A DNA stretch of 24,000 nt from Candidatus Woesearchaeota archaeon (GTDB lineage: Archaea; Nanobdellota; Nanobdellia; Pacearchaeales; GW2011-AR1), in the NCBI GenBank assembly GCA_964554415.1, contig CAZKON010000004.1, positions 1 through 24,000 on the forward strand, read 5' to 3'. Within the stretch, counting starts at the first letter, position 1; each line of letters starts with the position of its first letter. Below the pieces are notes generated by a model. It saw only the letters and a program-made list of their open reading frames with translations, was not told the origin of the DNA and did no database searches. Shown here one piece after another: positions 1-24,000 of the stretch. Position numbers and translations under genes: made by a program.

Positions 1-215
1 CGTCAAGAACTTTCAGTTCTTGAGCGCTGTTGAGAATCAGGTGATTCTCAAAGTCTCCGGCGGTGTCAAGAATCCCAGACTAAAGTTTGGGGCGTGTCAG
101 GTGTTCTTGAGCACTTTCGAGAATCCCAGAAAACGAGAGGATTCTCGAAGTCACAAAACCACAACAAGCCTCGGCTTTCAAGCCGAGGTTAAAAACCCGA
201 AGGGTTTTGTGACAT
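1..215. repeat. Hairpin-cluster element, copy A (left side cut by window edge)
   Basis: Stems read directly: 3-10/16-23 (TCAAGAAC/GTTCTTGA); 31-38/43-50 (TGAGAATC/GATTCTCA); outer 66-72/104-110 enclosing 74-80/85-91 (loop TAAA); 117-126/139-148 (10 bp); 169-175/182-188; 192-198/202-208 (loop GAA). Positions 66-126 align base for base with 17229-17288. The 70-aa ORF 20..232 is read-through of this element. Confidence 0.75.
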
Positions 216-232
216 TTCCTGAAGAATCATGA

Positions 233-1351
233 TCACTCAATCTGGAACCTTAAAATCGCGCCAACACCCTTTGTGAGATTTAAAAACTGCTGTCCCTCTT
301 GGTTTTCTGTTGAGATGAAGAACACGCTTGAGCCGATACGTTCTGCTTCCTGCTCAAGCTCTTGCATCTCTTTTTTTGGGAGTTCCTTTGAGATTAAAAG
401 AATATCCACTGCTCCTCTTTCCAGCGCAAGACGTGTTTTTTCCAAGCCATAAGCCGCCTTATCTCTGTTTTTTCCCAGAGCCTCAAAAAACTTCTGAATA
501 ATCTTTCTTTCTCTGATGAATTCCTGTTGTTCTATGTCTTCATGTGAAGCTTCTACTAGTAGTTTAAGCCCGTGTTCGTCAACATAGCCTATGTCTTTAA
601 CTGCAATGACTTTTTCTTTTAGCTTTGTTACAAGTTCGCTTTGTTCCAAAAACTCCTCTTTTGTTGGGATTGGGCCGCCGACAAGAATACCTTTAAGTTT
701 CGGCATGTCAAAGAATATCTCTTTCATTGCTTCTGCTACACGTTTGAAGAAGTATTTTGCAAGACCTTCTGTGATGCGATGAAAGCGCTGACTTGATTGG
801 CCACCTGCTCTTACTTTGCCAGGCACTCCTGATGTCATGATACGAATTACTTTGATTTGCTTGCCTTCTAATGCTCCGATAGTTGCCTGCTGACGGTCAA
901 TTGTAAGCAGCCCATAGATTTCTGTGACTTCAAGCATTTCTTTCAGAGGTTCTATGACAAATGCTTTATCGCATCTATATGTACGAATGCGCAGGGCTTT
1001 CGGCGGCTCGTATGCCCAAATCTGAACATCTTGCCCACCTTCTTTTTCAGAAACATTGCCACAAAAGATTGCTAAGCCATTGGTAGGTGTTTGTTTGTAT
1101 TCTTTGAGTTTGCGAATAATTGTTTCCAGCGCTGTGACTACGGAAGTTCTTGTTTGTTTTGATTTAATATTTTCCGCTGTTCCTGCTTCAGATGCAATCT
1201 GACTTGAGACTTGGTGGATATTGGTGCCCGCAGGTATAAGTACAGTCACAAGTTCTGTATGAACACCCCGTATACCTTCAAGTAAAGTCACAAGTTCTTC
1301 AAGTTCCTGTCTCTGTTGAGGTGTCATCTCAGGACTAATAACATTCGCCAT
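233..1351 (-). CDS. prf1: Archaeal peptide chain release factor aRF1
   Basis: 372-aa ORF with the NIKS codon-recognition motif (AENIKSKQTR) and the GGQ motif (RAGGQSSQRF). Three-domain eRF1/aRF1 layout. Confidence 0.95.
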   Translation of the reverse strand: MANVISPEMTPQQRQELEELVTLLEGIRGVHTELVTVLIPAGTNIHQVSSQIASEAGTAENIKSKQTRTSVVTALETIIRKLKEYKQTPTNGLAIFCGNVSEKEGGQDVQIWAYEPPKALRIRTYRCDKAFVIEPLKEMLEVTEIYGLLTIDRQQATIGALEGKQIKVIRIMTSGVPGKVRAGGQSSQRFHRITEGLAKYFFKRVAEAMKEIFFDMPKLKGILVGGPIPTKEEFLEQSELVTKLKEKVIAVKDIGYVDEHGLKLLVEASHEDIEQQEFIRERKIIQKFFEALGKNRDKAAYGLEKTRLALERGAVDILLISKELPKKEMQELEQEAERIGSSVFFISTENQEGQQFLNLTKGVGAILRFQIE

Positions 1352-3816: not shown

Positions 3817-4791
3817 ATGAAACTCATTAAGCAGGTTGTGGAAATCGGGAACGGCGCGGCAGTGTATGTGCCTAAAGAGTACCTTGGCCAGGTAGTGGCG
3901 CTTATTCTTCCTGAAGGAACTCGAGAAATCCAGCAACGCATTCTTACAGCTCTTGTGAGATATATGCCCAACATTCTTGGGGTATATCTGTACGGAAGCT
4001 ACGCGCGGGATGAGCAGCAGCCAGATTCAGATATTGATATTCTTGTCGTCACTAAAGAGAGAGATGCAACACTTAAAAGGCATCTGAATGATATCGACGC
4101 AAGAGTCCTTCCACTTGATGCAATCAGGAAAGCAATAAGAGAGCATCCTTTATTTATTGTGCCAGTCATTCGGGAAGCAAAAGTGTTATTAAATCCTGCT
4201 CTCTTGGAAGAGTTGCGCACTCTTCCATTCAATCGTGCACAATTTCAATGGCCCCTCAAAGAAGTCGAACGGACGGTAAAGATTATAGAGACTTTTCTTG
4301 CTTTGGATAGCGATACTGCACCCATTGCCCCCACACACCTGTATTCACTCATTCTGAGAATACGCGTCTGCTTCCTGATTGAATGCCTTTTACATAACAA
4401 GGCGTATACTCATAAACGCCTTAAGGAAAATCTGATGAAGCAGGGATTCAGGAGCGAAGCGATTGAGCGTTGGTTTTCAATCTATCGTGCAGTCAGAGAC
4501 AATGAAGAGCCGCGCATGCACATCAAAAAAACGATGCGCCCTCCGCACCTTAAAACCTCGAGAACTGCTGTTCTCGACGGCCGTCAAAAACCGAAGGTTT
4601 TTGAGGGGTGCGGTTTGGGGAGGCGCTCGTTTTTTGGATGCTCGGGGAGCAACTCCACCTTAAAAGGTGGAGTTTTCTGGAGGCTCCCCGACATAACAAA
4701 AGATGAGGTCTTAACTCTTATTTTATTTCTTAAGGCTTCGATAAAAAAACTCAGACATGAAACGAAAAAAACGGCTGGAAAAGGGTATTGA
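3817..4791 (+). CDS. Nucleotidyltransferase-domain (MNT-like) protein with AbrB/SpoVT-like N-terminus, interrupted in frame by a hairpin element
   Basis: Minimal NTase signature LGVYLYGSYARDEQQPDSDIDILVV (G-S ... D-x-D). The N-terminal MKLIKQVVEIGNGAAVYVPKEYLGQVV resembles an AbrB-type swapped hairpin. The helical C-terminal half is interrupted at about aa 241-291 by structured DNA. Confidence 0.75.
   Translation: MKLIKQVVEIGNGAAVYVPKEYLGQVVALILPEGTREIQQRILTALVRYMPNILGVYLYGSYARDEQQPDSDIDILVVTKERDATLKRHLNDIDARVLPLDAIRKAIREHPLFIVPVIREAKVLLNPALLEELRTLPFNRAQFQWPLKEVERTVKIIETFLALDSDTAPIAPTHLYSLILRIRVCFLIECLLHNKAYTHKRLKENLMKQGFRSEAIERWFSIYRAVRDNEEPRMHIKKTMRPPHLKTSRTAVLDGRQKPKVFEGCGLGRRSFFGCSGSNSTLKGGVFWRLPDITKDEVLTLILFLKASIKKLRHETKKTAGKGY
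4536..4691. repeat. Hairpin-cluster element, copy B, inside a CDS
   Basis: Helices 4536-4540/4622-4626 and 4543-4549/4607-4613 enclose hairpins 4558-4565/4570-4577 (loop TGCT) and 4584-4592/4596-4604 (loop GAA). Helix 4642-4650/4683-4691 encloses 4653-4659/4666-4672 (loop TTAAAA). Locally GC-rich relative to its surroundings. Confidence 0.7.
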
Positions 4792-4946: not shown

Positions 4947-5915
4947 TTAATCGAACACCATTTTCTCAGAAGGAAAGATATGATCTTCTTTCATGATGGC
5001 AGTCTCTACTTTTTGAATGCTTTTAGAAAACTCTTCAGTCAATGCGGAGATAATTTTGGTATATTCTACAAAACTCTTGCACATGATTTCCAATTCAATG
5101 TCCCAGGGAGAGATTTGTTTGAGCATGAAGAGGATGTTGTGGTGATGTAGCACATAGTTCATAAGACGATCAAGTTCTTGCTTGCTTAGATTTCTAAAAT
5201 AAAGAAACGTCTTGTAAAATTCATAGCCTAACTTTTGATAATTGAGGATGGCGGAGTATTTGACGATGACTTTTTGTTCTTCAAGACGGCGCATTCTTGT
5301 TCTCACAATGTCAACAGTTGTATTATTGTCGTGCGCAATTGCCGCGATATTCTCGCGGCTGTTCTTAAAAAGAGATTTGAGAACTTTGATGCTCATTGTA
5401 TCGAGTTTGATATTGGAGGGCCTGTCAAACATGGTGAGCCACTCGGTTTTTGCATGATGCAGGAACGTTTTATCGTGTGTATGCACACTCACGACGGTTG
5501 CGGTCGTGCTTTCATGGATGACTTCCTTAAACCGAGTAAATAATTCGTTTTTCAAGTCAAAAAATTCTTGTGTGTCTTTCACGAAAAATGTCGCGCCAAT
5601 GTTCCATGCACCTTCTGCCACTCCGAGCCAAAAGAGATGCTTATCTTTTTTGAGATATTCGAGGAGTTGTTTTTTCTTTATAGGAACATTTGCCAGTTTC
5701 AAATAAATTTTTGCTGTTTGGTAGCCGAGTTTTGTCGGGTCAAGCCAGGTGGTGAAGCCGAGAATGATTTCTTCTTCAAGCATACGTTTGATACGATAAC
5801 GCGCCGCTTCTTTGCTTTTGCCGATGAGTTTTGCTAAGCGCGTTTCTGGAATGCGCGCGTTTTTGTCGAGCTCGAAGAGGATGTGTTTGTCTATCTCGTC
5901 TATATTGTAAGGCAT
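4947..5915 (-). CDS. Tandem-duplicated Lrp/AsnC-family transcriptional regulator
   Basis: Two HTH_AsnC-like modules: IDKHILFELDKNARIPETRLAKLIGKSKEAARYRIKRMLEEEII and SIKVLKSLFKNSRENIAAIAHDNNTTVDIVRTRMRRLEEQKVI. Each is followed by a ...KLGY... segment and a RAM-like domain. Confidence 0.8.
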   Translation of the reverse strand: MPYNIDEIDKHILFELDKNARIPETRLAKLIGKSKEAARYRIKRMLEEEIILGFTTWLDPTKLGYQTAKIYLKLANVPIKKKQLLEYLKKDKHLFWLGVAEGAWNIGATFFVKDTQEFFDLKNELFTRFKEVIHESTTATVVSVHTHDKTFLHHAKTEWLTMFDRPSNIKLDTMSIKVLKSLFKNSRENIAAIAHDNNTTVDIVRTRMRRLEEQKVIVKYSAILNYQKLGYEFYKTFLYFRNLSKQELDRLMNYVLHHHNILFMLKQISPWDIELEIMCKSFVEYTKIISALTEEFSKSIQKVETAIMKEDHIFPSEKMVFD

Positions 5916-9247: not shown

Positions 9248-9531
9248 AGAGATTTCCTAAGCCTTCGCTACATCAAGATTCTGGCAATCGAATCTTGAGT
9301 GCCGTCAAGGTTTGGAAAACCTTGAGGTCCCCACAGCAAGCTGATGGGGTATTACGCTCGGCTTCTAGACGGAAATCTCTAATTTCAAACTGGCGCAGCA
9401 AGCTGCGGGGTATTACACCCAGTTTGAAATAAACACTTGTTACAGAGAATTAGGATAATTGAGTTGTATTTTGTTCCTAATTCTCTGTCTGGATGATTAG
9501 GAAAACAGGAATCAAATTAACCTAATCATCC
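9248..9531. repeat. Hairpin-cluster region in the valS / AbrB-like divergent intergenic space
   Basis: A perfect 10-bp long-range helix AGAGATTTCC (9248-9257) / GGAAATCTCT (9371-9380) encloses hairpins 9273-9280/9291-9298, 9305-9313/9317-9325 and 9329-9333/9345-9349. It is followed by perfect stems 9382-9393/9419-9430 (12 bp), 9442-9454/9476-9488 (13 bp) and 9491-9501/9521-9531 (11 bp). Confidence 0.7.
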
Positions 9532-9540
9532 ATATTAACA

Positions 9541-12856: not shown

Positions 12857-12947
12857 GGAGAATTCGGTTGATTATGTTCCACTACATTCGAATTCTCCAG
12901 ACAGAGAATTTGGTACAAAAAGTAACTCAATTAACCAAATTCTCTGT
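12857..12947. repeat. Pair of long-stem hairpins between convergent genes
   Basis: GGAGAATTCG (12857-12866) / CGAATTCTCC (12889-12898): 10 bp, 22-nt loop. ACAGAGAATTTGG (12901-12913) / CCAAATTCTCTGT (12935-12947): 13 bp, 21-nt loop. The second has the same architecture as 9442-9488. Confidence 0.7.
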
Positions 12948-13466
12948 AATTGACTTCTGCACTTCAGAAAAACAAGAAGTTTTGCTGCTCTCATTAACCA
13001 CTAAATTACAGAGCGTTTCATTACGCTCAGAAACAGCAAAACGTTCGTAACATCCATCACGATAAGATGCAGTTTTCACATCAGCACAAAGTTCATTATC
13101 TCTCTTTGCAAATGCCACGTTAGCATAACAGAAATCTTCGCTGCCAGAATCAGCAATCAAAGTGCATGGAGTAAAGTCTCTGGTTTGAATGGCATAGTAC
13201 TGAAAGCATCCATTCCTTTCATTTCCTCGGATATTGTTGCAGATGCGGACATCATGCTCCTGCACAGAAAAATTAAGATAACATAAATATTGTTTTGACT
13301 CGTTGCGCTCGTATTTACATATCGAGGCAGAATTAGAAAAATCAACCAATAGTACAACCATAAATCCAAGAACTAAAACAGCTACTGCAAAAAAAGGTAT
13401 ATTCTCACGCGCGACTTCTCTAAGCGCATGATTCATAATGATTGAACGCAGAAAACCCGCAAACAA
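12927..13466 (-). CDS. Membrane-anchored Cys-rich repeat protein
   Basis: N-terminal TM (IPFFAVAVLVLGFMVVLLV), then about four 26-aa repeats with paired Cys: CNNIRGNERNGCFQYYAIQTRDFTP / CTLIADSGSEDFCYANVAFAKRDNEL / CADVKTASYRDGCYERFAVSERNETL / CNLVVNESSKTSCF. The track start is a TTG and ATG at 13436 is an alternative. Confidence 0.6.
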   Translation of the reverse strand: MFAGFLRSIIMNHALREVARENIPFFAVAVLVLGFMVVLLVDFSNSASICKYERNESKQYLCYLNFSVQEHDVRICNNIRGNERNGCFQYYAIQTRDFTPCTLIADSGSEDFCYANVAFAKRDNELCADVKTASYRDGCYERFAVSERNETLCNLVVNESSKTSCFSEVQKSITENLVN

Positions 13467-13626: not shown

Positions 13627-14184
13627 CTAATTTTCTATATCTTTTAACGCAGTCTTAATGTTTCTCGTCAACTGCACCATTGAATCTTCAAGCTGCTGTT
13701 TATTCTTAGTTCCGGTGCAGACAAGCTTACCATTGGAAAAGAGCAGGAAAGTAGCAGGAGGTTCAACAAGCTTGTATACAAGACCAGGAAACTGCTCAGG
13801 TTCGTATTCAGTATTCTCCAATTGCAGAGCTAAAACATTCAGATTCAGATTTAAGTCAATGCTTCCAGATGCAACAATATTTTGTACAGTTATCTTAGGC
13901 GTTTCAGTAATTTTTACTCCTATCTTGGCTATCTGCTTAATGACTACCCGTATCACTTCCTTCACTTGCGCAACACTCTTAGTGCCTGTGCATACAAGAT
14001 TTCCTGAAGAAAATACGAGAACAGCAGACTTAGGTTTCTCAACACGCAAAACCAAACCAGGAAATTGTTCAGGGTTATATTCAGTATTACTCTGTGTACG
14101 TGCAAGTTTTGTCAAAGATATCTCTTTTCCTAAGGAAGTCGTAGCCACAATATTTTGAACTTTAAGGTTTGATTTAGTTGACAT
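13627..14184 (-). CDS. tbp: TATA-box binding protein
   Basis: Two direct TBP repeats: VQNIVAT...EYNPEQFPGLVLRVEKPKSAVLVFSSGNLVCTGTKS and VQNIVAS...EYEPEQFPGLVYKLVEPPATFLLFSNGKLVCTGTKN. The start is placed at the internal ATG 14184 because the TATA box lies inside the longer track ORF (to 14226). Confidence 0.93.
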   Translation of the reverse strand: MSTKSNLKVQNIVATTSLGKEISLTKLARTQSNTEYNPEQFPGLVLRVEKPKSAVLVFSSGNLVCTGTKSVAQVKEVIRVVIKQIAKIGVKITETPKITVQNIVASGSIDLNLNLNVLALQLENTEYEPEQFPGLVYKLVEPPATFLLFSNGKLVCTGTKNKQQLEDSMVQLTRNIKTALKDIEN

Positions 14185-14206
14185 AAGGCAGTATATGATG
14201 GTATCT

Positions 14207-14217
14207 CCTTTATAAGG
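14207..14217 (-). promoter_or_regulatory. TATA-like box for tbp
   Basis: Minus-sense CCTTATAAAGG centred about 28 nt upstream of the ATG at 14184. Confidence 0.5.
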
Positions 14218-14222
14218 AAAGT

Positions 14223-14549
14223 TCATTTATAAAGCTTTCCGAACTGGCTTGAAGAATCACTCTGCAAAGAAGACACGGGACTTTTAACAGAAGCTGAAGT
14301 CCCAGTTTTCACACTCAGCTCACCCTCCCGACGACGAATCCAAGAAAAAATTGCTGAAATTAAGATAATGCTGATAAAAAGCAAGACAAAGATTCCGATA
14401 GACCATTTATATAATTCTCCTGAAGGAGAAGTAAACGCTTGATAAACTTTTACAACAAGTATAAATCCCGCAATAACAAGAGCGCAAACTCCGACACCAA
14501 GAAGAACCCTCTCTAACCACTTAGGTATCATGTTCTTCTCCATTTTCAT
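14223..14549 (-). CDS. Membrane protein, two TM helices, Ser-rich tail
   Basis: 108 aa with hydrophobic segments VLLGVGVCALVIAGFILVV and IGIFVLLFISIILISAIF. Overlaps the ligase 3' end by 29 nt. No family recognised. Confidence 0.5.
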   Translation of the reverse strand: MKMEKNMIPKWLERVLLGVGVCALVIAGFILVVKVYQAFTSPSGELYKWSIGIFVLLFISIILISAIFSWIRRREGELSVKTGTSASVKSPVSSLQSDSSSQFGKLYK

Positions 14550-16290
14550 ATTCTTTAGAATTTATCTTTCTTAATGATTCTTCTGAAGATTTCCCCTCTC
14601 TGAAATTCTGTTCATTTTTAACACATCCCTCAATGTCAGCCAGTGTAGCTATATCGCTTGTTGTTCTGTCAGGCCGATAGTGCGTAATCCTCGGAAATCG
14701 CAATGCATAACCAGATAGATAACTCGGGCTCGCCTGTATATTCTGGTATGTTACAGAAACTATAACTTTAGGTTGCACACGTACACTATTCCCCTGACTA
14801 TCAATAATCAAAGGTTTAAGTATTTGAGTCATCTCGTCATAACTAGTCCCTGCTTCTTCTTTTTCCTTCAAACCGGAAGAAACCATTCCAACTTCAGCAA
14901 ATCCATCTTGTGTTCTGCAAGCCACAACATAACTAGTCAGCCAGCCTGCTCTTTTTCCAGAGCCGTATTCTGCTCCAACAATAACTAAATCAAGGTCATT
15001 TACCACAGGTTTTAACTTCACTATATATCCAACGCGGCGCCCTTGCTTGTAAGGCGCATTAAGTGCTTTAATTATGATACCTTCTTCGCCGCTCTTCAAT
15101 GCTTCAGTATAAAATTCTTCTGCTTCACTCTCACTTCCAGTCACAATCTGTCGTGAAGCCCTAATAACCCATTCTTTTGTAGAAATCAGTTTTTCCAGCA
15201 GTTTCCTGCGCTCAATAAAAGGTATTTTTAGCACACTTTTCCCATTGAGATAAAGAACATCAAATACGTTTATCTCAACAGGCAGTTTCTTGCTCAGCTG
15301 TTCAATACCGTACTTCCTTCGGATTCTCTGGCTGATTGCTTCAAAAGGCATATACCTTTTTGTCTCTGAATTGTAGCCGACAACCTCACTATCTAAAATA
15401 AAACTCTTTGCTTTCACATATTTCCTAACAGCCGCGACAACATCAGGAAACTGAGCAGTCACATTTTCAAGTTTTCGCGTAAAGAGCATAACCTGTTTCC
15501 CGTCATAATTTATAAGCATACGGAACCCGTCATATTTATGTTCCAGTGCCGCAGGCTTCCCGCATATACGAAATGCTTCTGTAATATTTGTTACCTTAAC
15601 AGGCAGCATAACTTTAATTGCTCTCCCAGGCACGACTGAAATGCTGTCTAACCCCCCTCTTCCGCGTGCCGCGGCTGCAAAAACCAATGCAAAGTCATTT
15701 GCAAGATCGTAAGCCTCAGTCAAGCGTTCGCGCATATCTTCCTCTCCAGCAAAGAAAGCAGCAGACAATGCATCAGTCAACAATGCATCAGCAACACCAA
15801 TGCGCAAGTCCTGTAAAACAGTGCGAATCAAATATCTTGCCTCTCTTGCTGTTGCTGCTCCAAGCAATTCCGCAATGCATCCAATCTTCTTTTCAACAGC
15901 TCCTTGCCCGCTGATAATCAGTAGTTTCTGTAAAATATCAAAAACATTTGCTATGCTCAACGCCTTTGAAAATAAAGGTTGCTGTTTTCTTTTCTCAGCA
16001 AACTCCGCTGCAATATCTCCTAAATCGCCGAGATTCTTATAACGCTGAACAATTATATCGCTTCCAATCCCAAAAGCATTAGCAATTGATTTGATTGCCA
16101 ACTGTCCAGATATCCCATATTCTCGTGTATCATAATCAGGCACAACCCTCCCCCGCAATAGATATATCCATTTATATTTGCCGGTTTTATGCAGTTCTTT
16201 CAGCCAATCCGCCAGCACGCTCGTCTTTTCACCTTGTTTGCGCGTTGCTGCAAGTCGCTCATAGACCTCAACAAGAGAAAGATATTTCAT
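14521..16290 (-). CDS. lig: ATP-dependent DNA ligase
   Basis: Adenylation motif I EHKYDGFR (KxDG) and an OB-fold region, with archaeal/eukaryotic ligase length. Start moved to ATG 16290 (MKYLSLVEVYERL) because the upstream ATG at 16311 overlaps the TATA box. Confidence 0.93.
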   Translation of the reverse strand: MKYLSLVEVYERLAATRKQGEKTSVLADWLKELHKTGKYKWIYLLRGRVVPDYDTREYGISGQLAIKSIANAFGIGSDIIVQRYKNLGDLGDIAAEFAEKRKQQPLFSKALSIANVFDILQKLLIISGQGAVEKKIGCIAELLGAATAREARYLIRTVLQDLRIGVADALLTDALSAAFFAGEEDMRERLTEAYDLANDFALVFAAAARGRGGLDSISVVPGRAIKVMLPVKVTNITEAFRICGKPAALEHKYDGFRMLINYDGKQVMLFTRKLENVTAQFPDVVAAVRKYVKAKSFILDSEVVGYNSETKRYMPFEAISQRIRRKYGIEQLSKKLPVEINVFDVLYLNGKSVLKIPFIERRKLLEKLISTKEWVIRASRQIVTGSESEAEEFYTEALKSGEEGIIIKALNAPYKQGRRVGYIVKLKPVVNDLDLVIVGAEYGSGKRAGWLTSYVVACRTQDGFAEVGMVSSGLKEKEEAGTSYDEMTQILKPLIIDSQGNSVRVQPKVIVSVTYQNIQASPSYLSGYALRFPRITHYRPDRTTSDIATLADIEGCVKNEQNFREGKSSEESLRKINSKEYENGEEHDT

Positions 16291-16310
16291 GTTCCAGAAA
16301 AGCAGGTACA

Positions 16311-16318
16311 TTATATAA
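16311..16318 (-). promoter_or_regulatory. TATA-like box for lig
   Basis: TTATATAA centred about 25 nt upstream of the ATG at 16290. Confidence 0.5.
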
Positions 16319-16369: not shown

Positions 16370-16771
16370 CTATTCGCGCCCGAAAGGCTCCAACTTCAGC
16401 CCGGGAATACGCTCAAAATGATTTGTATTTCTTGTGAGAAGAGACTCATTCCGGGAAATACAGATAGCAGCAATCATGATATCCGTAAGTTCAATCATTG
16501 CTCCAGCAGCCTTGAGTTGTTCAAAAATCTCTGCTGCTTTCTCTGAAGCTTCAAGAGTAAAATTGAGAATTGCAACGTTATTCAAAAAAAGTTCAACTGC
16601 GTCTTTTTGGCTTTTCTTGCTGAGGCGAAGGTTTCCGCGATAGAGTTCAAATGAATTAATGCTCGTGGTAAAAAGAGGTTGTTCCCTATCTTTCAGTGAG
16701 GTAATCATCTCAAAAATAGAGCGCTCATTCTTAAGGTAATCAATGATAATATCAGTATCAAGGCAGACCAT
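16370..16771 (-). CDS. vapC: PIN-domain ribonuclease toxin VapC
   Basis: 133 aa with MVCLDTDIIIDY, SFELY, LTDIMIAA and TRNTNHF, the conserved PIN acidic positions. The start overlaps the antitoxin stop by 1 nt (TAATG). Confidence 0.85.
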   Translation of the reverse strand: MVCLDTDIIIDYLKNERSIFEMITSLKDREQPLFTTSINSFELYRGNLRLSKKSQKDAVELFLNNVAILNFTLEASEKAAEIFEQLKAAGAMIELTDIMIAAICISRNESLLTRNTNHFERIPGLKLEPFGRE

Positions 16772-16986
16772 TACTTAAATCTCCGTGATGGCATCTTCCT
16801 CTCATCGTACAACTCCTTCTTAATGCGATCCGCATCTTCTTTGCTCCAGGATCCGGCGAGTTCACGAAGTGTTTTTTTCTTTTTTTCGCGTACAATCTCT
16901 ATAACAATTTCTGAGAAAGATTTTTCTTCATCAATTTTGCGCAATTCATTGTATGCTTCATCGGAGATGCTGATGACTTTAACCAT
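16771..16986 (-). CDS. vapB: VapB-type antitoxin (ribbon-helix-helix-like)
   Basis: 71 aa. MVKVISISDEAYNELRKI...SFSEIVIEIV is typical of small archaeal VapB partners of PIN toxins. Translationally coupled to vapC. Confidence 0.7.
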   Translation of the reverse strand: MVKVISISDEAYNELRKIDEEKSFSEIVIEIVREKKKKTLRELAGSWSKEDADRIKKELYDERKMPSRRFK

Positions 16987-16991
16987 AAATG

Positions 16992-17003
16992 CATGTATAC
17001 ATG
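16992..17003. promoter_or_regulatory. Perfect 12-bp palindrome between TATA box and vapB start (candidate operator)
   Basis: CATGTATACATG lies between a TATA-like TTAAATAC (minus sense, about 17009-17016) and the vapB ATG (16986). Confidence 0.4.
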
Positions 17004-17227
17004 TATGTATTTAAGCCTTTCGATGATTCAACGATAAACTATGCTAACACTGGTTAAAAATGTCAAGACAATGCCCTTTGGGCATCTAATTGGTTTATTA
17101 ATTGCCTCTGGTTTTTCTAATATTATCAATCATTATTTCTAATGGAAAGCATTATTATTAATTAAAATATGACCTATAAAGCTATCTTCCTCCATAGGAA
17201 ATAAAATGGGGTTAAAGTTTATATTAC

Positions 17228-17710
17228 TTCAAGAACCACCCACTAAAGTGGGTGGCGTGTCGTGGTTCTTGAGCACACTCGAGAATCCTTTATTACTCCC
17301 TGCTTAAGCAGGGAGATTGCATGATGTATTATAGGATTCTCGATGTATCAGATAATGCATTAACCAAAAAGCTTGTGAATCTCCCCGCCCAAGGGTTTGC
17401 CTTCGGCAAATCCGCCTGCTGGCGGAGTGGGGCATCCAAGAAAACCAAGAACCGAAGCGGACTCATATTTGAGATAATTATCTCTTAAATAAAAGAAGAT
17501 GCTTGGGAAGTATAGAAGACTTTAGGGGTTCGTCAAGAACTTCGAGAATATGCTTATTCTCGACAGCTTCAGAAACCTCTTGTTTCTGACAGTGCTCAGA
17601 AATAGAATATTTCTGACATGCTCAAGAATTTGCCAATTCTTGACATCTGCTGATTCTTGAACGCATCCAAGAACCAGAGGTTCTTGGTGTGTCAAAGTCT
17701 TCTATACTAC
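17228..17710. repeat. Hairpin-cluster element, copy C (largest): composite nested hairpins, GC-rich three-hairpin module, and a 14-bp-closed tandem hairpin array
   Basis: 17229-17235/17266-17272 encloses 17236-17243/17248-17255 (loop TAAA). 17279-17288/17334-17343 (10 bp) encloses 17296-17303/17308-17315. Also 17396-17401/17405-17410 and 17411-17416/17421-17426 (loop TGCT). 17510-17523/17694-17707 (14 bp, perfect) encloses hairpins starting at 17542, 17569, 17596, 17622 and 17667. No ORF. Confidence 0.8.
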
Positions 17711-17721
17711 AAGCTAGATTT

Positions 17722-18651
17722 TTACTTATAACTAGATAATACCGAACGTAAAAAGCGCTGATCTACTGCATCAAATCCCAATGAATCATCCATATAAAAC
17801 ATAAGAGAAGTTGATTTTAGTTTTCCATCCTCATATAAATAATTTGAGCTTCGCCATGCGCCGACACCATTGCAATTATAGTAGCAGCCTGTTCCCTCGA
17901 GACAACCGATGCCTCTGTCTGTTTCATCACGGAAAGGAACACATCGCGTTTTATAAAATGAATCAATTTCAGTTCTCCAAAAACAATTATTATTTGACTT
18001 GCATAAATTTTCTGAAAGGTCTTTACAATAATCATAAAGCACACCAGAAGGTTCTTTTTGAGAATCTGTACACCATTTAGGACAACCATCAACGTCACAA
18101 TTAGGCATATCTTTCAAATTAAGACCATATCCATTAAATTCACCTCTTACTCGCTTTTGATCAGTTAATCCAAGTAAATGAGCAAACTCATGGACAGTTT
18201 CGATATGACCGTTACTACTAATAAGATTATCTAGAGAGATGGTAAGAGCAATCTTTCCCCCACCCCCCGACTTTCCCTTACCCACTGACTCCGCCCATCC
18301 TCCAGTTTTTTCTGAATCCTTATTATCCCAAATAATTATTGCATGATCATAAGGAATCTCTGATAAAGATAGCCAATCCTTCACGTCTGCTATACATTGA
18401 AAGGGATTATCAGCAAAATAACAATGTTTTTGTAAAAAGAAAGATTCAAGAGAAGGAGGCATTTTTTCAATTTTATAAAAATTAAACTTGTTTCTGTCTG
18501 ATTTAAAAGGTTCATAGTAAAGAATTCCCTTGTACTTACTCTCACTATCAATTTGCTCCAAAACATTCTTATCAAAATCCTCGGGATTAGAAAAATCAAG
18601 ACCGATAAATACGACATCTAACTTATCCTCGGGCTTTCCATTAATAAGCAC
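17722..18651 (-). CDS. Zinc metalloprotease domain protein (HExxH, peptidase M64-like) with Cys-rich C-terminus; probably the 3' part of a longer frameshifted gene
   Basis: HEFAHLLGLTD zincin motif preceded by an M64-like layout (DVVFIGLDF...PF...FNFYKIE...IIIWDN...GGWAE). The track start is a GTG with no signal peptide. The frame stays open upstream with no stop up to and beyond the G7 tract at 18849-18855, and contains no ATG. Confidence 0.7.
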   Translation of the reverse strand: MLINGKPEDKLDVVFIGLDFSNPEDFDKNVLEQIDSESKYKGILYYEPFKSDRNKFNFYKIEKMPPSLESFFLQKHCYFADNPFQCIADVKDWLSLSEIPYDHAIIIWDNKDSEKTGGWAESVGKGKSGGGGKIALTISLDNLISSNGHIETVHEFAHLLGLTDQKRVRGEFNGYGLNLKDMPNCDVDGCPKWCTDSQKEPSGVLYDYCKDLSENLCKSNNNCFWRTEIDSFYKTRCVPFRDETDRGIGCLEGTGCYYNCNGVGAWRSSNYLYEDGKLKSTSLMFYMDDSLGFDAVDQRFLRSVLSSYK

Positions 18652-18815: not shown

Positions 18816-21689
18816 CTACAGCTGGCGTACCTGACTGAGGAACATCTGCCCCCCCGTCCCACCGCCCCCAAACAATTTCCTGAAGAAGTTAATTATTTTC
18901 TCAAACAACCCTGCATCAACGCACTTCCCGCCCGCGCATACATTGCTCCCGCATTCATAGTTATTCTCACACGTCGCTTCTGCTGCTCTCTGCGCTTTCA
19001 TCGTCCCGCTCAATGCACAGTAATCCCCGCCTGCCCGCGTGCCAAATCCAATGCACTTGCTACTTCCATCGCTACTCGGCAAATTGCATCCGATTGTCGC
19101 GCATGAGTTGCTGCTTCCGCTTCCTCCACCGCTTCCTCCCCCGCCACTGCTTCCTCCGCTGCCAGATGTTCCCCCCGAACTACTGGTCCCGCTATAATAA
19201 ATAAATGCCGTACGCGGTGCACTTATAGAGCCTTTATGCAGAGCGACTATAGGGACATCACCACCAGTTGAACTGATAATATTATCTGTATTTGCAGGGT
19301 CAGAATAAGAAGATTGCCTCGTATAAATTTTGTTCACATCAACATAAGAAGAACTCCCGCTTCTTTGTTGACTCAACGTAATAATCGCCTCTTTGCCTGC
19401 CTCAAAATTCCCAGATACATCTTGTCCATGAACAACTAAGTGAAAATATTCAGAAAAATAAAAACGCGAAAGTGAGTTACCAATCGCACCTTGTTCAGTT
19501 GTACTACCATAAAGAGAATATCTTAAAGATTCATCTAATGTCGGAAGATAAATAGCAAGACCTTCCCGCGTGGCAAGCATATTAAACTTTATACGATTAT
19601 CTTGTGCGCTCACATAGACACTTTTCGTTCCCGAATTTATGTAAACCTCATCAATTTTCAAACTTACTAAATTATCAAAATTCACGATATCTCCTGCTTT
19701 CTTATCCCCCTTTGATGTCCATGCTCCATTGCTGTAATATTCAACATTAGTCTTGTTAGCAAACTCTTCTGCAGTATAGGAATTAAATCTAACAAGATAC
19801 GAAACAGGGTTACGAGAGTCATTAAGAGTCACAACCATATATCTATCGCCCCCAGTATAATTGTATAACACCCTACTCGTCATTGAACTTGTGACAAGGC
19901 GATTGCTAGGACTTTTACCTATACCAAGAAATGAACCAGAGGCATTAGTATACAATAAAGGCATCGTGACTTCTCCGCTTTTGATTGTTGTCTTTAATTG
20001 TAAGACATAACTTCCATCATTTGTGATAGTCGTAGTTTCTTTAAGGCTATTTGCGAGTTTATTAAGTTTCTCAAACTCTATCGCACTAGAACCTTCGCTT
20101 GTTGAATATGCAACACTAACACCTTCAGATGCACACGCACTGTCTTCAATAATGATATCTCCATCTGAAGGGTTGCAATTGACTGTTCGAAGAGTGCAAG
20201 TATTATCCTGAAGGGAAGACGAACCAGTACATGAGATTCCAAGAATTAAACATTTTCTTTTCTCAACTTTTCCTTCAGTTTTGGAAGAAATAAACGTGCG
20301 CATTTGAAGAAGCTGTAAATTAGTGGACTTATAGTTAATAGAAGTGTACAAATTACTTTCACTTTCTGATTTCACATCTTTTATAGAAAGCGCGCGCTCT
20401 TTACATGCTGTTTGAGAAAGCTTTTGGATTGCAGGCGCGTCACAAGATTCAGGAAGAAAAACAAGAGAAACCCTGCCCCAACCAAGTCCCAGTGGAGAAT
20501 TCTCAATGCCTTCAACAATTACTTTAATATTAGTCTCCGGGATTTTAAAGGATTCATATGCTCGAAGAGAGGCAGTATACTCCTTCTTATCATTCCCAAC
20601 TTTAGAAAAGTAAATCGCGGCACTTTCTCCGAAAGGTTGGGCATATACTGAAAAAGAAGTACCCATAATTCTCAAGTCAATTATCCCATCTTCAATTGTG
20701 ATTCGTGTGACATCGCACGATGCTGTTCCGCTTCCTCCGCTCGCCACGCATGCGCCATCAACACATCCATTTAAACAAGGATATTTCTCAAGTGCAGCAG
20801 TATCGGCAGAAGTGCAGAAATATTCAAAAACAACCGCACCTTCATCACTAACGCTGCAATAATCGGTCGCTTTACCGCCGTCTTTATTAACAAGTGTCCC
20901 TTTCACAAAGTAATTCTTTCCATTAGGAAATCCATCTCTTTCATCAGTATCTTTTGTGTCATCATCAGTGCACTGCGCTGTTCCGCTTCCTCCGCCTTGG
21001 TTCGGCGTTGTTGTCATTCCAGCAAGCTTCTTCTTTCCTTCACGGTATAAATCTTTCACAGCTTGCTCTGACAACGCATCTGCATACACGCGAACATCGT
21101 ACGCTCTGCCCTCAAAGTATCTATTGTCATAAGGCGCAGGCAAACCACAATCATGCCCGATGCATAAGTCACCTGTTGTACCGAGCGTGCCGGAAGCAGC
21201 AACGCTCGCTTCAAGCACTCCGCCACGATACAATGAAATAGTCGCGCCATCCCAAGTGCCAACCCAATGATCCCATGTGTTCAATGGAAGGCGATTCGCT
21301 CCAGAAGAAACCGAGTACCATGCATCATCCAAGAACACCCAGAATTTCACGCTCCCGTCTGTTTCCGCGCTTAAAATATAAGAGTTTCTCTTTGACACCC
21401 AGCTTCCAGTAATCTCATTGTTCCCTGTCCTGAGTGCCTTGGTATTAAACCATCCTCCGACAGTAACTGCTTTCTTCGATGTTTTTATATTGCTTGCAGA
21501 TGTAGTCCCATATGCACCGGAGCCATCGTAAGTTCGCACATCAGGAACTATAATCTGTGCAGAAGTTGAATAATCATCAATCACTTTTCCTGTGACTGTA
21601 AAAGGCCAAAACGCAGAAACAACACTGACACTCAAGACGAGCAATAACGCAAAGACCAGTGCAATAAAAACACTTCTTCCCTCTTTCAT
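18816..21689 (-). CDS. Giant secreted/surface protein: signal anchor, LamG (concanavalin-A-like lectin) domain, Cys-rich modules, Gly/Ser linker
   Basis: N-terminal SVFIALVFALLLVLSVSVVSA. LamG-like core ITGSWVSKRNSYILSAETDGSVKFWVFLDDAWYSV...WDHWVGTWDG...ISLYRGGV...GDLCIGHD...FEGRAYDVRVY. Cys-spaced modules (CTDDDTKD...DYC...EYFC...CLNGCVDGAC; CENNYECGSNVCAGGKC). Poly-G/S linker. Confidence 0.85.
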   Translation of the reverse strand: MKEGRSVFIALVFALLLVLSVSVVSAFWPFTVTGKVIDDYSTSAQIIVPDVRTYDGSGAYGTTSASNIKTSKKAVTVGGWFNTKALRTGNNEITGSWVSKRNSYILSAETDGSVKFWVFLDDAWYSVSSGANRLPLNTWDHWVGTWDGATISLYRGGVLEASVAASGTLGTTGDLCIGHDCGLPAPYDNRYFEGRAYDVRVYADALSEQAVKDLYREGKKKLAGMTTTPNQGGGSGTAQCTDDDTKDTDERDGFPNGKNYFVKGTLVNKDGGKATDYCSVSDEGAVVFEYFCTSADTAALEKYPCLNGCVDGACVASGGSGTASCDVTRITIEDGIIDLRIMGTSFSVYAQPFGESAAIYFSKVGNDKKEYTASLRAYESFKIPETNIKVIVEGIENSPLGLGWGRVSLVFLPESCDAPAIQKLSQTACKERALSIKDVKSESESNLYTSINYKSTNLQLLQMRTFISSKTEGKVEKRKCLILGISCTGSSSLQDNTCTLRTVNCNPSDGDIIIEDSACASEGVSVAYSTSEGSSAIEFEKLNKLANSLKETTTITNDGSYVLQLKTTIKSGEVTMPLLYTNASGSFLGIGKSPSNRLVTSSMTSRVLYNYTGGDRYMVVTLNDSRNPVSYLVRFNSYTAEEFANKTNVEYYSNGAWTSKGDKKAGDIVNFDNLVSLKIDEVYINSGTKSVYVSAQDNRIKFNMLATREGLAIYLPTLDESLRYSLYGSTTEQGAIGNSLSRFYFSEYFHLVVHGQDVSGNFEAGKEAIITLSQQRSGSSSYVDVNKIYTRQSSYSDPANTDNIISSTGGDVPIVALHKGSISAPRTAFIYYSGTSSSGGTSGSGGSSGGGGSGGGSGSSNSCATIGCNLPSSDGSSKCIGFGTRAGGDYCALSGTMKAQRAAEATCENNYECGSNVCAGGKCVDAGLFEKIINFFRKLFGGGGTGGQMFLSQVRQL

Positions 21690-21747: not shown

Positions 21748-24000
21748 TCAAAACCCTGTCGATACACCGCCAGGCTGCAGCGTTGATGAGTGCGGCTCTG
21801 GTCTGTAAAATTCATTATTCTTGTTTGTGTTCTGCTGCTTCACGACATAAACAATTGCAACAATTACAAAGATAATGAATATAATTAATGCGATGATAAC
21901 AACAATCATTGTCTTAGAATCAAGCGCCGCAAGACCTTTTTTGTCAATTCCTGTAGAATTTGTAGTATTAATAAGTCTCGTCACGCCAGGAGCAACGTTA
22001 GTGCCTCCGCCAGGCCCACCACCGCCTCCACCTGGAGCAGTTTCTTCAGTTATTGTACGCAGCATGATAAGAGGTTTGCCATTTGTAACCTGAAGGAAAG
22101 TGATATTAAAATCAGGACGGCTGTTTGCATTCAAGTCAAGTGATTGTGTTTCACCTTGTGAAAGAGTAAAGGTAATAGGCAGGTTCTTGATTGTTATTGT
22201 TAATCTGTTAGCGCTCAAACTGACAATTGTCATGTTATAATTAGTTGTTCCTACTCGGAACAAGAGAGTCTCACCTACGCTAAGTGTTGTATTATACCCC
22301 CGCGCCAGTGCTGTCGGCTGAATCACTAAAGGCGCTGGCTTTGGCTGCGGCTCATCGCTACCTACAAGCGTTATGGTGTTGTTCTTGCTAGCTGAATCAT
22401 TTTGATAATTCCCGAGTCCATTGTTGAAGAAAGTCATCCGAAGCAGAGAATTATCAGAAGAACTTGCAAAGTAAGCACCATAATTTGCGTTTGACCTTAA
22501 AGCAGTACGATCCATAGTATTAAAGTTACTGCGCTCAAACCACACACCGCTTCCAAGACTCTGCTCAATTGCTCCCCTGTTAATAAAAGAATTCTGTGTA
22601 TCATTGAGATGCAATCCAACTTCTTCGCTTTGAGATATTGAAACACTATCAAGCACCGCTCCCCGCGTATTATGAATTAATATTCCTTTCGTGAACCCTT
22701 CAACCTTGATATTCTTTAGTGTGACATTCTTCTTATCGCGGACAGAAATACCTGTTGTTATTAATGATGACGAAGCAAGCGGATCAGCTGAAGTCGTAGT
22801 GACTCTAACAAAATTTCCTTGCCCATCAAGAGAAACATTGTCTGAAGCAATCGTCAAACATGTTTTATCGGAGCTGAGTGACTGCGTAAGCTGGTAGATT
22901 CCTGGCTTATCAATTGTACCGCACGCACTCACACCCGTTGGAGACACAGGAGTAGTTGCTGCAAGCGCAAGTTGTGTTTTGAACAATGAGTCTGCTTCTG
23001 CTGCCGAAAGCCCATAATCAAAGAATTGTAGTTCATCAATATGCCCATTAAAGAATCGCTTTTCAGCTCCGCCTGTAAAGTCACGACCGATGTACAAATC
23101 TCCAATTGCTCCCATGGTCCCTCCTGAAACAGGAAGACTTTTTATTTCGCTTCCATCTAAATATAAAACAAGATGGCTTCCATTATAAACTGCACTCCAA
23201 TACTGCCACACTCCAGTTTTAACGCTTCCTACAGGAGCTCTTACAGACACCCATTCTTTATCCAAAAATGCCCAGAAATCAACGGAACCATCTTTATTCG
23301 GGCCAAAAACATAAGCTTTTCTCTTTGACACCCAGCTTCCAGTGATATCTCCTGCAGTCAAATCATTTGTCTTGAACCATCCAGAAATACTAAAGGCTCC
23401 ATAAAATGAGAGCACTGCCGCGTTAGGTACATATAACTCGTCATCACTGCCATCAAATGAAGCTGCCTTTCCTACCTTGCCGCTACTGCTTGCTACACCG
23501 TTTTTTGCACTTCCTCCAATGTTACCGAGTATATCTTTGACTGCTCCTGGCTCTGCACTAATAATTTCGTCAAAACTCCAATGCGCCACTCTGCCCAGAC
23601 CACCGGCACTCAATAGTTCCCTGCGCTGCTTTTCATAAATCGCTTTAATCCCATCTGCGTTAGTAACCTTATAAGTAATATTCATTTCGTCAAGCATACC
23701 ATTCAAATAATGAGTGCGGACATTCCCATTAAAAACATCTTTACCCATGCCAAGTGTAAGTCCTGAAATTGAGGCATCTGGTCCATCAGAAACGCTTGCC
23801 GAAGCAATCTGTTTTCCGTTTATATAAATCGCCTTGACTGTTCCACCATTTCCTCCAGAAACCAATGCGACATGGGTCCAATTTCCATAATAAGGACTAT
23901 AGTCCACACTGACTCTTCCTTTAGAGTCGCTTGGCTCCCCATAATCCCAATACAATTTATTATTTGCCCATAGATATGCGCCAAAACGATTAGCATCACC
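21748..24000 (-). CDS. Giant surface protein (5' end outside window): two LamG domains, right-handed beta-helix (PbH1-like) repeats, Gly-rich linker, C-terminal TM anchor
   Basis: The frame is open to the window edge (the track start at 23955 is a TTG). LamG cores: WTHVALV...IYINGK...LDEMNI and ITGSWVSKRKAYVFGPNKDGSVDFWAFLDKEWVSV...LYLDGS...GDLYIGRD...FNGHIDELQFF. Beta-helix-like repeats: NVTLKNIKVEGFTKGILIHNTRGAVLDSVSISQSEEVGLHLNDTQNSFINRGAIEQS. GGGGGGPGGG, then TM MIVVIIALIIFIIFVIVAIVYVV. Confidence 0.85.
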   Translation of the reverse strand, partial: GDANRFGAYLWANNKLYWDYGEPSDSKGRVSVDYSPYYGNWTHVALVSGGNGGTVKAIYINGKQIASASVSDGPDASISGLTLGMGKDVFNGNVRTHYLNGMLDEMNITYKVTNADGIKAIYEKQRRELLSAGGLGRVAHWSFDEIISAEPGAVKDILGNIGGSAKNGVASSSGKVGKAASFDGSDDELYVPNAAVLSFYGAFSISGWFKTNDLTAGDITGSWVSKRKAYVFGPNKDGSVDFWAFLDKEWVSVRAPVGSVKTGVWQYWSAVYNGSHLVLYLDGSEIKSLPVSGGTMGAIGDLYIGRDFTGGAEKRFFNGHIDELQFFDYGLSAAEADSLFKTQLALAATTPVSPTGVSACGTIDKPGIYQLTQSLSSDKTCLTIASDNVSLDGQGNFVRVTTTSADPLASSSLITTGISVRDKKNVTLKNIKVEGFTKGILIHNTRGAVLDSVSISQSEEVGLHLNDTQNSFINRGAIEQSLGSGVWFERSNFNTMDRTALRSNANYGAYFASSSDNSLLRMTFFNNGLGNYQNDSASKNNTITLVGSDEPQPKPAPLVIQPTALARGYNTTLSVGETLLFRVGTTNYNMTIVSLSANRLTITIKNLPITFTLSQGETQSLDLNANSRPDFNITFLQVTNGKPLIMLRTITEETAPGGGGGGPGGGTNVAPGVTRLINTTNSTGIDKKGLAALDSKTMIVVIIALIIFIIFVIVAIVYVVKQQNTNKNNEFYRPEPHSSTLQPGGVSTGF

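Follow-up and report, generated by a model that had tools for sequence, protein, structure and literature searches.

Why do two places in one archaeal contig, 17 kb apart, carry the same nested hairpin, with stems that differ between the two copies by compensatory changes? The question is raised by positions 64-150 and 17229-17345 of a 24,000-nucleotide (nt) stretch of Candidatus Woesearchaeota archaeon DNA (assembly GCA_964554415.1, contig CAZKON010000004.1, positions 1 to 24,000 of the forward strand), which is called the window here. The original prediction had described the two hairpins as one conserved structure and had weakly favored an RNA read from the + strand. The element is not a two-locus regulatory RNA. 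The two loci are probably two insertions of one small, non-coding, hairpin-forming mobile repeat family of DPANN archaea (Woese- and Pacearchaeota), and that the repeat is a mobile, selfish one overall is held with good confidence. The best explanation is a non-autonomous palindromic mobile element that inserts without target-site duplication, and its closest counterparts are the PATE (palindrome-associated transposable element)/SMR elements, the bacterial REP (repetitive extragenic palindrome) and BIME (bacterial interspersed mosaic element) repeats, and the Rickettsia palindromic elements (RPE).

A Unit of Two Adjacent Hairpins

The unit consists of two adjacent hairpins with the near-invariant stems TCAAGAAC/GTTCTTGA (hairpin A) and TCGAGAATC/GATTCTCGA (hairpin B), a GCACNN linker and variable loop contents. 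The full architecture reads (T)G-TCAAGAAC-insert-GTTCTTGA-GCACNN-TCGAGAATC-insert-GATTCTCGA-(A/T)G in the orientation of the original prediction, and on the opposite strand 5'-C(T/A)-(TCGAGAAT.. hairpin)-NN-GTGC-(TCAAGAAC.. hairpin)-CA-3'. The inserts measure from 3 nt to more than 100 nt and are of recurring types, while stems and linker are almost invariant. The arm TCAAGAAC is found nine times in the window against 1.5 expected, a number that none of 100 shuffles reached. Of the outermost arms, TCAAGAAC agrees at 7/8 positions with the reverse complement of GATTCTCGA, so that the two form a short terminal inverted repeat; as in PATE, the two palindromes near the ends resemble each other and long terminal inverted repeats are lacking. 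The two main copies, a smaller unit and a neighboring module are the following.

64..150, - strand: unit copy 1, made up of TG (64-65), hairpin A (66-110), linker GCACTT (111-116), hairpin B (117-148) and AG (149-150)
66-110: hairpin A of copy 1, outer stem TCAAGAA/TTCTTGA, inner hairpin TCCCAGAC-TAAA-GTTTGGGG, bulge CGTGTCAGGTG
117-148: hairpin B of copy 1, TCGAGAATCC-12 nt-GGATTCTCGA; the - strand reads CT-hairpin B-AAGTGC-hairpin A-CA
17229..17345, - strand: unit copy 2, made up of hairpin A (17229-17272), linker GCACAC (17273-17278), hairpin B (17279-17343) and TG (17344-17345)
17229-17272: hairpin A of copy 2, inner hairpin CCACCCAC-TAAA-GTGGGTGG, bulge CGTGTCGTG
17279-17343: hairpin B of copy 2, carrying CTCCCTGC-TTAA-GCAGGGAG
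1..53, - strand: small short-loop unit, TCAAGAACT-ttc-AGTTCTTGA, GCGCTG, TTGAGAATC-aggt-GATTCTCAA, AG; touches the window start
151..213: neighboring composite hairpin, TCACAAAACC...GGTTTTGTGA around GCCTCGGCTT-tca-AAGCCGAGG, a separate module abutted by unit copy 1

Copy 1 lies directly past the stop of the aRF1 gene, in a region cut by the window start. Copy 2, which has CT at 17227-17228 in place of the usual 5' TG, sits in a spacer of about 730 nt between an antitoxin start (16986) and the stop of a 309-aa open reading frame (ORF; 17722). The alignment of 66-126 with 17229-17288 that had drawn attention to them was borne out when checked in the sequence. The outer stem, the TAAA loop and the GCGTGTC bulge are common to both copies, and the TCGAGAATCC/GGATTCTCGA stem is identical. 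The inner stem has A-T versus C-G at pair 4, C-G versus A-T at pair 6, G.T versus C-G at pair 3 and T.G versus C-G at pair 8. The loop of the second hairpin is 12 nt long at 127-138 and 45 nt at 17289-17333, the longer one holding the extra hairpin given above. The scope of two loci proved too narrow, as further units stand at 3-53, 17540-17645 and, nested, 17567-17618, and related modules at 151-213, 4523-4693, 9273-9540, 12891-12949 and 17381-17436. The 151-213 module also occurs, with a covarying inner stem, at three loci elsewhere (L007, L010, and L019).

Dispersal Across Genomes

The exact 23-nt pattern GTTCTTGAGCRCNNTYGAGAATC, which runs from the 3' arm of the first hairpin through the linker into the 5' arm of the second, was scanned in species-representative genomes, JGI metagenomes and viral contigs; the loci obtained are cited by number (L001 and so on). 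All of these data are metagenome-assembled genomes (MAGs) and metagenome contigs. The genomes gave 28 loci, with 14 contigs from a single Woesearchaeota MAG (CAZCXX01) and the others from Woesearchaeota and Pacearchaeota MAGs, apart from two in a MAG labeled Methanosarcinales. The metagenomes gave 31 loci and the viral contigs none. About nine matches (L002-L006, L021, L051, and L060 among them) were left out as chance because the flanking arms are missing; these came from Actinomycetes, Desulfobacterales, Pseudanabaena and one Micrarchaeota coding region. Around 50 loci carry both flanking arms.

The 17229-17345 copy represents the commonest type, of which 15 distinct full copies were collected. 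Copies with unrelated flanks have stems that are 80-98% identical. Over 118-122 nt, window 17229-17350 shares 89-91% of its positions with L041/L055 and with L046, and L041 is 96% identical to L046 over 122 nt, in each case with unrelated flanks; window 103-213 is 98% identical to L010 4861-4972, and again the flanks differ. The alternative that the two window loci are simply recent duplicates is thereby replaced by a dispersed, multi-genome family of insertions. A survey of the hairpins alone, over 435 kb, counted 160 distinct ones of the TC-purine kind, which stand singly, as dimers or in arrays; like REP/BIME repeats, they are palindromes of 20-40 nt, high in copy number, mostly extragenic, and single or clustered. 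The orientation of units to genes is mixed, with sense and antisense positions and both convergent and divergent spacers, while the two main copies and the 1-53 unit lie 3' of genes on the gene strand.

In the relatives L061 and L062, whose aRF1 is 84-86% identical to that of the window, the array downstream of aRF1 is absent. The only public contig with the exact aRF1 of the window is L001 (Logan contig SRR12113383_735695; 2,113 nt), which ends 44 nt beyond aRF1, where the hairpin array begins; this end is probably an assembly break caused by the repeats. Full long-insert units are also present in L017 (8.2 kb) and L026 (3.1 kb) of the Methanosarcinales-labeled MAG, which could be mis-binned DPANN contigs or a real presence in a host lineage.

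Insertion Junctions and Target

Nine comparisons of filled with empty sites gave exact junctions, with an ambiguity of at most 1 nt, and none of the nine shows a target-site duplication. The filled site is named first in each.

L019 against L007
L047 against window ~9393-9400
L009/L018/L022/L024 against L056/L038
L011 against L049
L018 6224-6273 against L027/L020
L032 against L052
L040 2705-2750 against L047
window 17540-17645 against L036
window 17567-17618 against L020/L018

These comparisons directly demonstrate the modular gain or loss of hairpins that the two window copies had suggested. At ~9393-9400, where the window is empty, L047 has a unit and L040 a larger composite. On the strand opposite to that of the original prediction, the inserted block reads 5'-C(T/A)-hairpin-NN-GTGC-hairpin-CA-3' in all nine, one of which ends in C. 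The left flanks are GGGA, AGGA, CAGA, GGGA, GAAA, AGAA, GAAG, ACAG and TGAG, and the right flank is T at 8/9 junctions. On the element's own strand the target is RRRR|T, that is, a purine run and no single fixed tetramer in these nine events. The asymmetry is also seen in the survey hairpins. A GC stands on exactly one side in 67/160 and on both sides in none; in the 67 that can be oriented in this way, the 5' flank is GTGC in 48 and the 3' flank CA in 51. The tag at the one end is GTGC or GCGC, which differs from the GTAG/CGTC tag of REP. The unit comes and goes as a single block whose ends are exact.

The 5' arms of the units are themselves TC-purine runs (TCAAGAA|T), and therefore units land in the arms, loops and linkers of older copies; insertion after purine runs inside other hairpins results in nested and tandem composites. 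Three nested levels are preserved in window 17533-17660.

17533..17660, + strand: host hairpin TCAAGAATC-tgct-GATTCTTGA, split at TCAAGAA|TC by a unit; the empty form is L036 1713-1770
17540..17645, + strand: inserted unit CT-TCGAGAATA-tgct-TATTCTCGA-CAG[..]TGC-TCAAGAATT-tgcc-AATTCTTGA-CA
17567..17618, + strand: second unit, nested in the linker of the first, CT-TCAGAAAC-ctctt-GTTTCTGA-CAGTGC-TCAGAAATA-gaa-TATTTCTGA-CA
17667..17687: single hairpin of the same stem type, CCAAGAACC-aga-GGTTCTTGG, also beside the empty site in L036

The 17540-17645 unit is found in uninterrupted form in L020 1419-1477 and L018 6221-6280. Taken together, the short-hairpin array at 17533-17687 has the stems TCGAGAATA, TCAGAAAC, TCAGAAATA, TCAAGAATT and CCAAGAACC. 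A CRISPR array was rejected for 17540-17645, where each unit has different stems and only 5-6 nt separate the hairpins; the array is explained by nested insertion.

A further, near-identical composite of about 230 nt is present at three sites of one MAG (L018 6941-7115, L022 2721-2953, and L024/L009 ~5070-5300). Its boundaries are formed by a perfect 12-bp inverted repeat, AGAGAATTTCTC/GAGAAATTCTCT, AAT stands on either side, and inside lies a short-loop unit that is missing from the same composite in L056 and L038. This composite looks like a conventional MITE (miniature inverted-repeat transposable element) that is itself a target.

Pairing and Strand

The pairing of the inner hairpin is kept through compensatory change well beyond the two window copies. 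Among 16 distinct copies, pre-filtered for at least 6/8 pairs, 7/8 pairs show double changes (33 cells). The stem substitutions stay correlated in this larger set, with a covariation score of 0.68 against 0.26 for shuffles; none of 500 shuffles reached it, and all slid registers collapse. Without the filter, 14/19 copies have at least six pairs, compared with about 6.4 expected with shuffled partners. The inner-stem variants include CCACCCAC/GTGGGTGG, CCCCAGAC/GTCTGGGG, CCCTACAC/GTGTAGGG, CCTCGGAA/TTCCGAGG and CTCTGCGC/GCGCAGAG, and the upper hairpin of the second stem-loop is CTCCCTGC/GCAGGGAG or CTCCCCGC/GCGGGGAG. The second stem is moreover extended across a one-base bulge, where linker positions 3-5 (ACT, ACA, ACG) pair with the 3' flank (AGT, TGT, CGT) in 35/43 units, with T-A, A-T and G-C variants (ACW with WGT).

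Strong covariation alone is no sign of a functional RNA, since mobile palindromes give an equal signal. Only copies that still fold would be recopied, and the pairing would be kept for this reason; selection would then act on the propagation of the element in single-stranded form and not on a host RNA.

The strand was judged in several ways. Both regions fold far better than shuffles (z-scores from -6.5 to -7.6), and do so alike on the two strands. In 19 units, the orientation of the original prediction has the lower folding energy in 11 and the opposite one in 4, and 4 differ by <1 kcal/mol; assignment of a strand by folding energy was rejected as too weak on these counts and on the equality of the window strands. 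Single mismatches, tallied automatically in 38 units, came to 3 G.T versus 3 A.C. The wobble pairs of the two window copies had been taken to argue for a + strand RNA. This argument fails because G.T and C.A mismatches occur in both orientations: other copies, for example L015, L025, L033, L041, L008 and L020, carry C.A in the predicted orientation and would have G.U only on the opposite strand. In the predicted orientation the loops have the consensus T[AG]AA and the bulge GYGTGYTNGG. In the flanks of the units, neither a promoter nor a terminator is conserved.

Copies Inside Genes

Some copies are read in frame. L034 and L036 are orthologous, with 85% identity over 1,991 nt, and in both a complete unit of the window type is read in frame within a family 2 glycosyltransferase (GT2) ORF of 376 codons (L034 ~124-1242, reverse strand; L036 5145-6263). 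The insert of about 40 residues stands between 'EIILLPNKPL' and 'KNPFGKIVKIFPTG...FIDDDAYP', and the Pfam Glyco_tranf_2_3 match (residues 10-264) spans it. In the window, the ORF 3817-4791 (+ strand) encodes a nucleotidyltransferase-like protein (Pfam NTP_transf_2 and Polbeta) and reads through the composite described below.

4523..4693: composite nested hairpin of about 170 nt, including TCGAGAAC-tgct-GTTCTCGA and TCAAAAACC-gaa-GGTTTTTGA, in frame inside ORF 3817-4791

Compared with the homologues at L010 5788-6618 and L037 3427-4197, this ORF has about 57 extra residues, on both sides of which the proteins align. The host domain is thus preserved on both sides of an in-frame insertion, as in Rickettsia. 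The N-terminus of the same ORF also matches DUF2080 ('putative transposon-encoded protein').

A Possible Route of Mobility and Rival Explanations

Absence of duplication, a target recognized strand-specifically by one end and two similar palindromes near the termini would together point to a single-strand 'peel and paste' route, as in IS200/IS605, PATE or REP with RAYT (REP-associated tyrosine transposase), with an enzyme that acts in trans and is encoded elsewhere in the genome. This route is put forward tentatively, as a possibility somewhat short of even. Several results weigh against it or against mobility in general. No transposase or recurrent neighbor gene was found near the copies in the ~475 kb of loci. 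All-against-all BLASTP of 501 ORFs gave only housekeeping and toxin-antitoxin genes as multi-copy families, the matches listed for 79 mid-sized ORFs in Pfam were to housekeeping families only, and a crude scan of the 475 kb for the IS200 TnpA motif gave no match. No repeat longer than ~350 nt was found among the loci, and hence they contain no candidate autonomous parent. Both hairpins, TCGAGAATC and TCAAGAAC, lie 2 nt from the unit ends, whereas IS608 has asymmetric hairpin offsets of 19 nt and 10 nt. The element shared by L034 and L036 is ~95% identical, compared with 73-90% in 60-nt windows of flanking coding sequence, which suggests constraint or gene conversion beyond pure junk. The exclusive origin of the data from MAGs and metagenome contigs belongs on the same side. 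In the ~475 kb, likewise, neither a full-length TnpA (Y1 HUH)/TnpB element sharing the ends nor a RAYT gene flanked by repeats was found, and no ORFs other than toxin-antitoxin or nucleotidyltransferase genes were found flanked by a split unit.

A different account of the same anatomy, which we regard as rather unlikely, is an undescribed class of self-nesting, duplication-free two-hairpin DPANN transposons that do not derive from IS605 or REP and are moved by an unknown structure-specific enzyme. The purine-run targets would here be recognized by pairing with the element's own linker, in which the 'A' of GCAC would pair with the T of the target, and ACW with this T together with WG. As insertions read in frame within proteins and as conserved nucleic-acid structures, the copies would be tolerated, or even put to use, in these very small genomes.

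A structured RNA of the + strand, either a small RNA or a cis-acting element of an untranslated region, with hairpins under selection for RNA function, would fit the strong inner-stem covariation, the T[AG]AA loops and GYGTGYTNGG bulge conserved in the predicted orientation, its slightly better folding in 11/15 units with an energy difference between strands, and the greater conservation of the L034/L036 element than of its flanks. Nevertheless, as a general account it is very improbable, given that presence and absence vary at otherwise identical sites, that loop contents run from 3 to >100 nt, and that copies occur in convergent and divergent spacers and inside ORFs with mixed gene orientation. 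The equal folding of the window strands, the balance of G.T and A.C mismatches with recurrent C.A, and flanks without promoter or terminator also speak against it, as does Rfam 15, which gave no match in the whole window at gathering thresholds and only chance-level matches (E>1) over 16900-17800 at E up to 10. Host-useful hairpins, serving as 3'-end or stability elements, protein-binding sites or topological insulators, with mobility as their means of spread, are an improbable general answer. Their position and orientation to genes are inconsistent, they are missing at orthologous sites of close relatives and present within coding sequence, and nesting into one another is not expected of tuned regulatory sites. 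On the other hand, both main copies and the 1-53 unit lie 3' of genes on the gene strand, the L034/L036 elements are conserved above their flanks, the stems hardly vary from order to order, as would fit their recognition by a conserved protein, and REPs have such secondary roles in bacteria (PMC3733652). Some copies may have a host-useful role.

A conventional MITE, moved by a DDE transposase that recognizes the terminal inverted repeat TCRAGAAY, would predict a target-site duplication, which is seen at 0/9 junctions; the termini are asymmetric (CW...CA) with an internal GTGC tag, the target is specific for one strand and has its purine run on a single side, and no parent insertion sequence was seen among the loci. 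We consider this unlikely, while acknowledging the 7/8 match between the outer arm of hairpin A and the reverse complement of that of hairpin B, the size of 50-120 nt, the mostly intergenic position, the high number and the 12-bp terminal repeat AGAGAATTTCTC of the larger composite in L018/L022/L024. Censuses of the MITE-Tracker type also label such repeats MITEs, and a Woesearchaeal genome has 105 of them per Mb (PMC11602168).

Other candidates were rejected on structure. Readings as an H/ACA, box C/D, K-turn, bulge-helix-bulge intron, hammerhead-like or type III toxin-antitoxin repeat element were weighed by eye and dropped: the unpaired motifs or pockets that they need are missing, or are not kept from copy to copy. 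A replication origin, a dif site or a dimeric operator does not fit an arm spacing of 3 to >100 nt and covarying inner stems. An integron attC site was set aside as well: the stems TCAAGAAC/GTTCTTGA do not match the R box RYYYAAC/GTTRRRY, and the hairpins are directly adjacent.

Comparison With Known Systems

Small palindromic mobile repeats (REP/BIME, RPE, MITE, PATE/SMR) are already known. What is new here is a unit of two head-to-tail hairpins with exact termini and a GTGC tag, its purine-run target, its nesting into itself and its copies read in frame.

The RPE are hairpin repeats of ~100-150 nt, found both in intergenic regions and in frame in genes, whose reading frame they leave intact. 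The in-frame copies in the GT2 ORF of L034/L036 and in window ORF 3817-4791 resemble them, whereas host and sequence are unrelated and in-frame copies are a minority here. Integron attC sites have a conserved basal stem and a terminal structure of very variable length, and are thought to be active as folded single strands. The conserved basal stem with a variable terminal structure is shared with the present unit; unlike attC, it has no cassettes between sites and no integrase nearby.

The PATE/SMR-A elements of Haloquadratum walsbyi resemble the unit in an archaeal host, a length too short to code, no target duplication, mutually similar palindromes beside both ends, terminal-only forms as short as 52 bp that hold little besides the two palindromes, and frequent insertion into the palindromes of others; they also have a short target oligonucleotide on one side (PMC3119063), to which the purine run here may correspond. 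PATE are transposase-free relatives of IS605-type transposons, whereas no IS605-type parent and no tnpA or tnpB was found near the copies here. The likeness is one of anatomy, with no sequence relation seen, and the hosts are DPANN and not haloarchaea; in addition, the hairpins lie 2 nt from both ends and the loops hold further structured inserts.

The REP/BIME/REPIN repeats with RAYT likewise are short palindromes with a conserved tetranucleotide tag at one end, occurring as singletons, dimers and clusters, mostly extragenic and some intragenic; some families insert in other palindromes, and stems vary with compensation (PMC3733652). In contrast to these, the tag here is GTGC instead of GTAG or CGTC, the element lives in archaea, the loci showed no RAYT gene, and the dimers are head-to-tail, an arrangement reported as rare or absent for REP (PMC3733652). 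Generic prokaryotic MITEs are also small, non-coding, inverted-repeat-ended and mostly intergenic (PMC11602168), while the present units have asymmetric ends and no target-site duplication. In a bulk census, a Woesearchaeal genome is among the densest archaeal carriers of MITEs (PMC11602168). This census was the only report found in the literature on the sequences themselves or on DPANN hairpin repeats, and it gives no anatomy of this family.

DPANN genomes are very small and gene-dense, and yet hairpin repeats make up ~5% of the window. The defined unit, its target and the filled and empty sites help in the search for the mobilizing enzyme, and with it for what would be single-strand transposition in an archaeal lineage that has hardly been studied. 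The units are also a ready strain-typing marker and explain assembly breaks in these MAGs, and the in-frame copies are natural examples of hairpin repeats absorbed into proteins.

Other Features of the Window

The window has further hairpin modules.

9273..9540: cluster of related hairpin modules, including the empty site ctctaa|tttcaaac at ~9393-9400
9440-9498 and 12891-12949: inverted copies of the ACAGAGAATTAGG...CCTAATTCTCTGT hairpin, 59 nt, 85% complementary, 3.4 kb apart
17381-17436: G+C-rich composite hairpin CTCCCCGCC...GGGTTTGCC-ttcg-GGCAAATCC...GGCGGAGTGGGG, adjoining a unit

Within 9320-9430 stand two copies of a different, recurring module, C(N)CAGCAAGCTG(N)GGGTATTAC, in which a 5-bp stem capped by a CAAG loop precedes GGGTATTAC. 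It was also found in L009, L011, L018, L022, L024, L029, L038, L040 and L047, and in L047 its loop holds two inserted mini-hairpins. The ACAGAGAATTAGG...CCTAATTCTCTGT hairpins, of which L020 has a similar copy, look like another repeat family with AGAGAATT-type arms. The 17381-17436 module follows the units of L032, L049 and L052 in the opposite orientation.

The G+C content of the window is ~41%, and a scan of it for tRNA and tmRNA gave none. Its named genes are as follows.

233-1351, - strand: aRF1, archaeal
13627-14226, - strand: TATA-binding protein, archaeal
14521-16311, - strand: ATP-dependent DNA ligase, archaeal
16370-16986: VapB-PIN pair, antitoxin start at 16986
window ORF, archaeal: class I aminoacyl-tRNA synthetase
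stop at 17722: 309-aa ORF, without Pfam match

A direct repeat of 99 nt (76% identical) at 21318-21416 and 23251-23349 lies within two large adjacent surface-protein ORFs (18816-21689 and 21748-23955) and is a domain segment common to both (ITGSWVSKR...FWAFLD). Its differences are not adenine-specific, and so nothing points to a diversity-generating retroelement. Among named homologues, those that match aRF1 best are from 'Nanoarchaeota archaeon' and 'Candidatus Pacearchaeota archaeon', which places the host in the DPANN archaea of the Woese-/Pacearchaeota group. The window aRF1 is without an intein; some close homologues (P0069, P0078, and P0081) are 503-514 aa long and have Hint/intein domains (PF01079 and PF14890), and relatives therefore appear to have an aRF1 intein.

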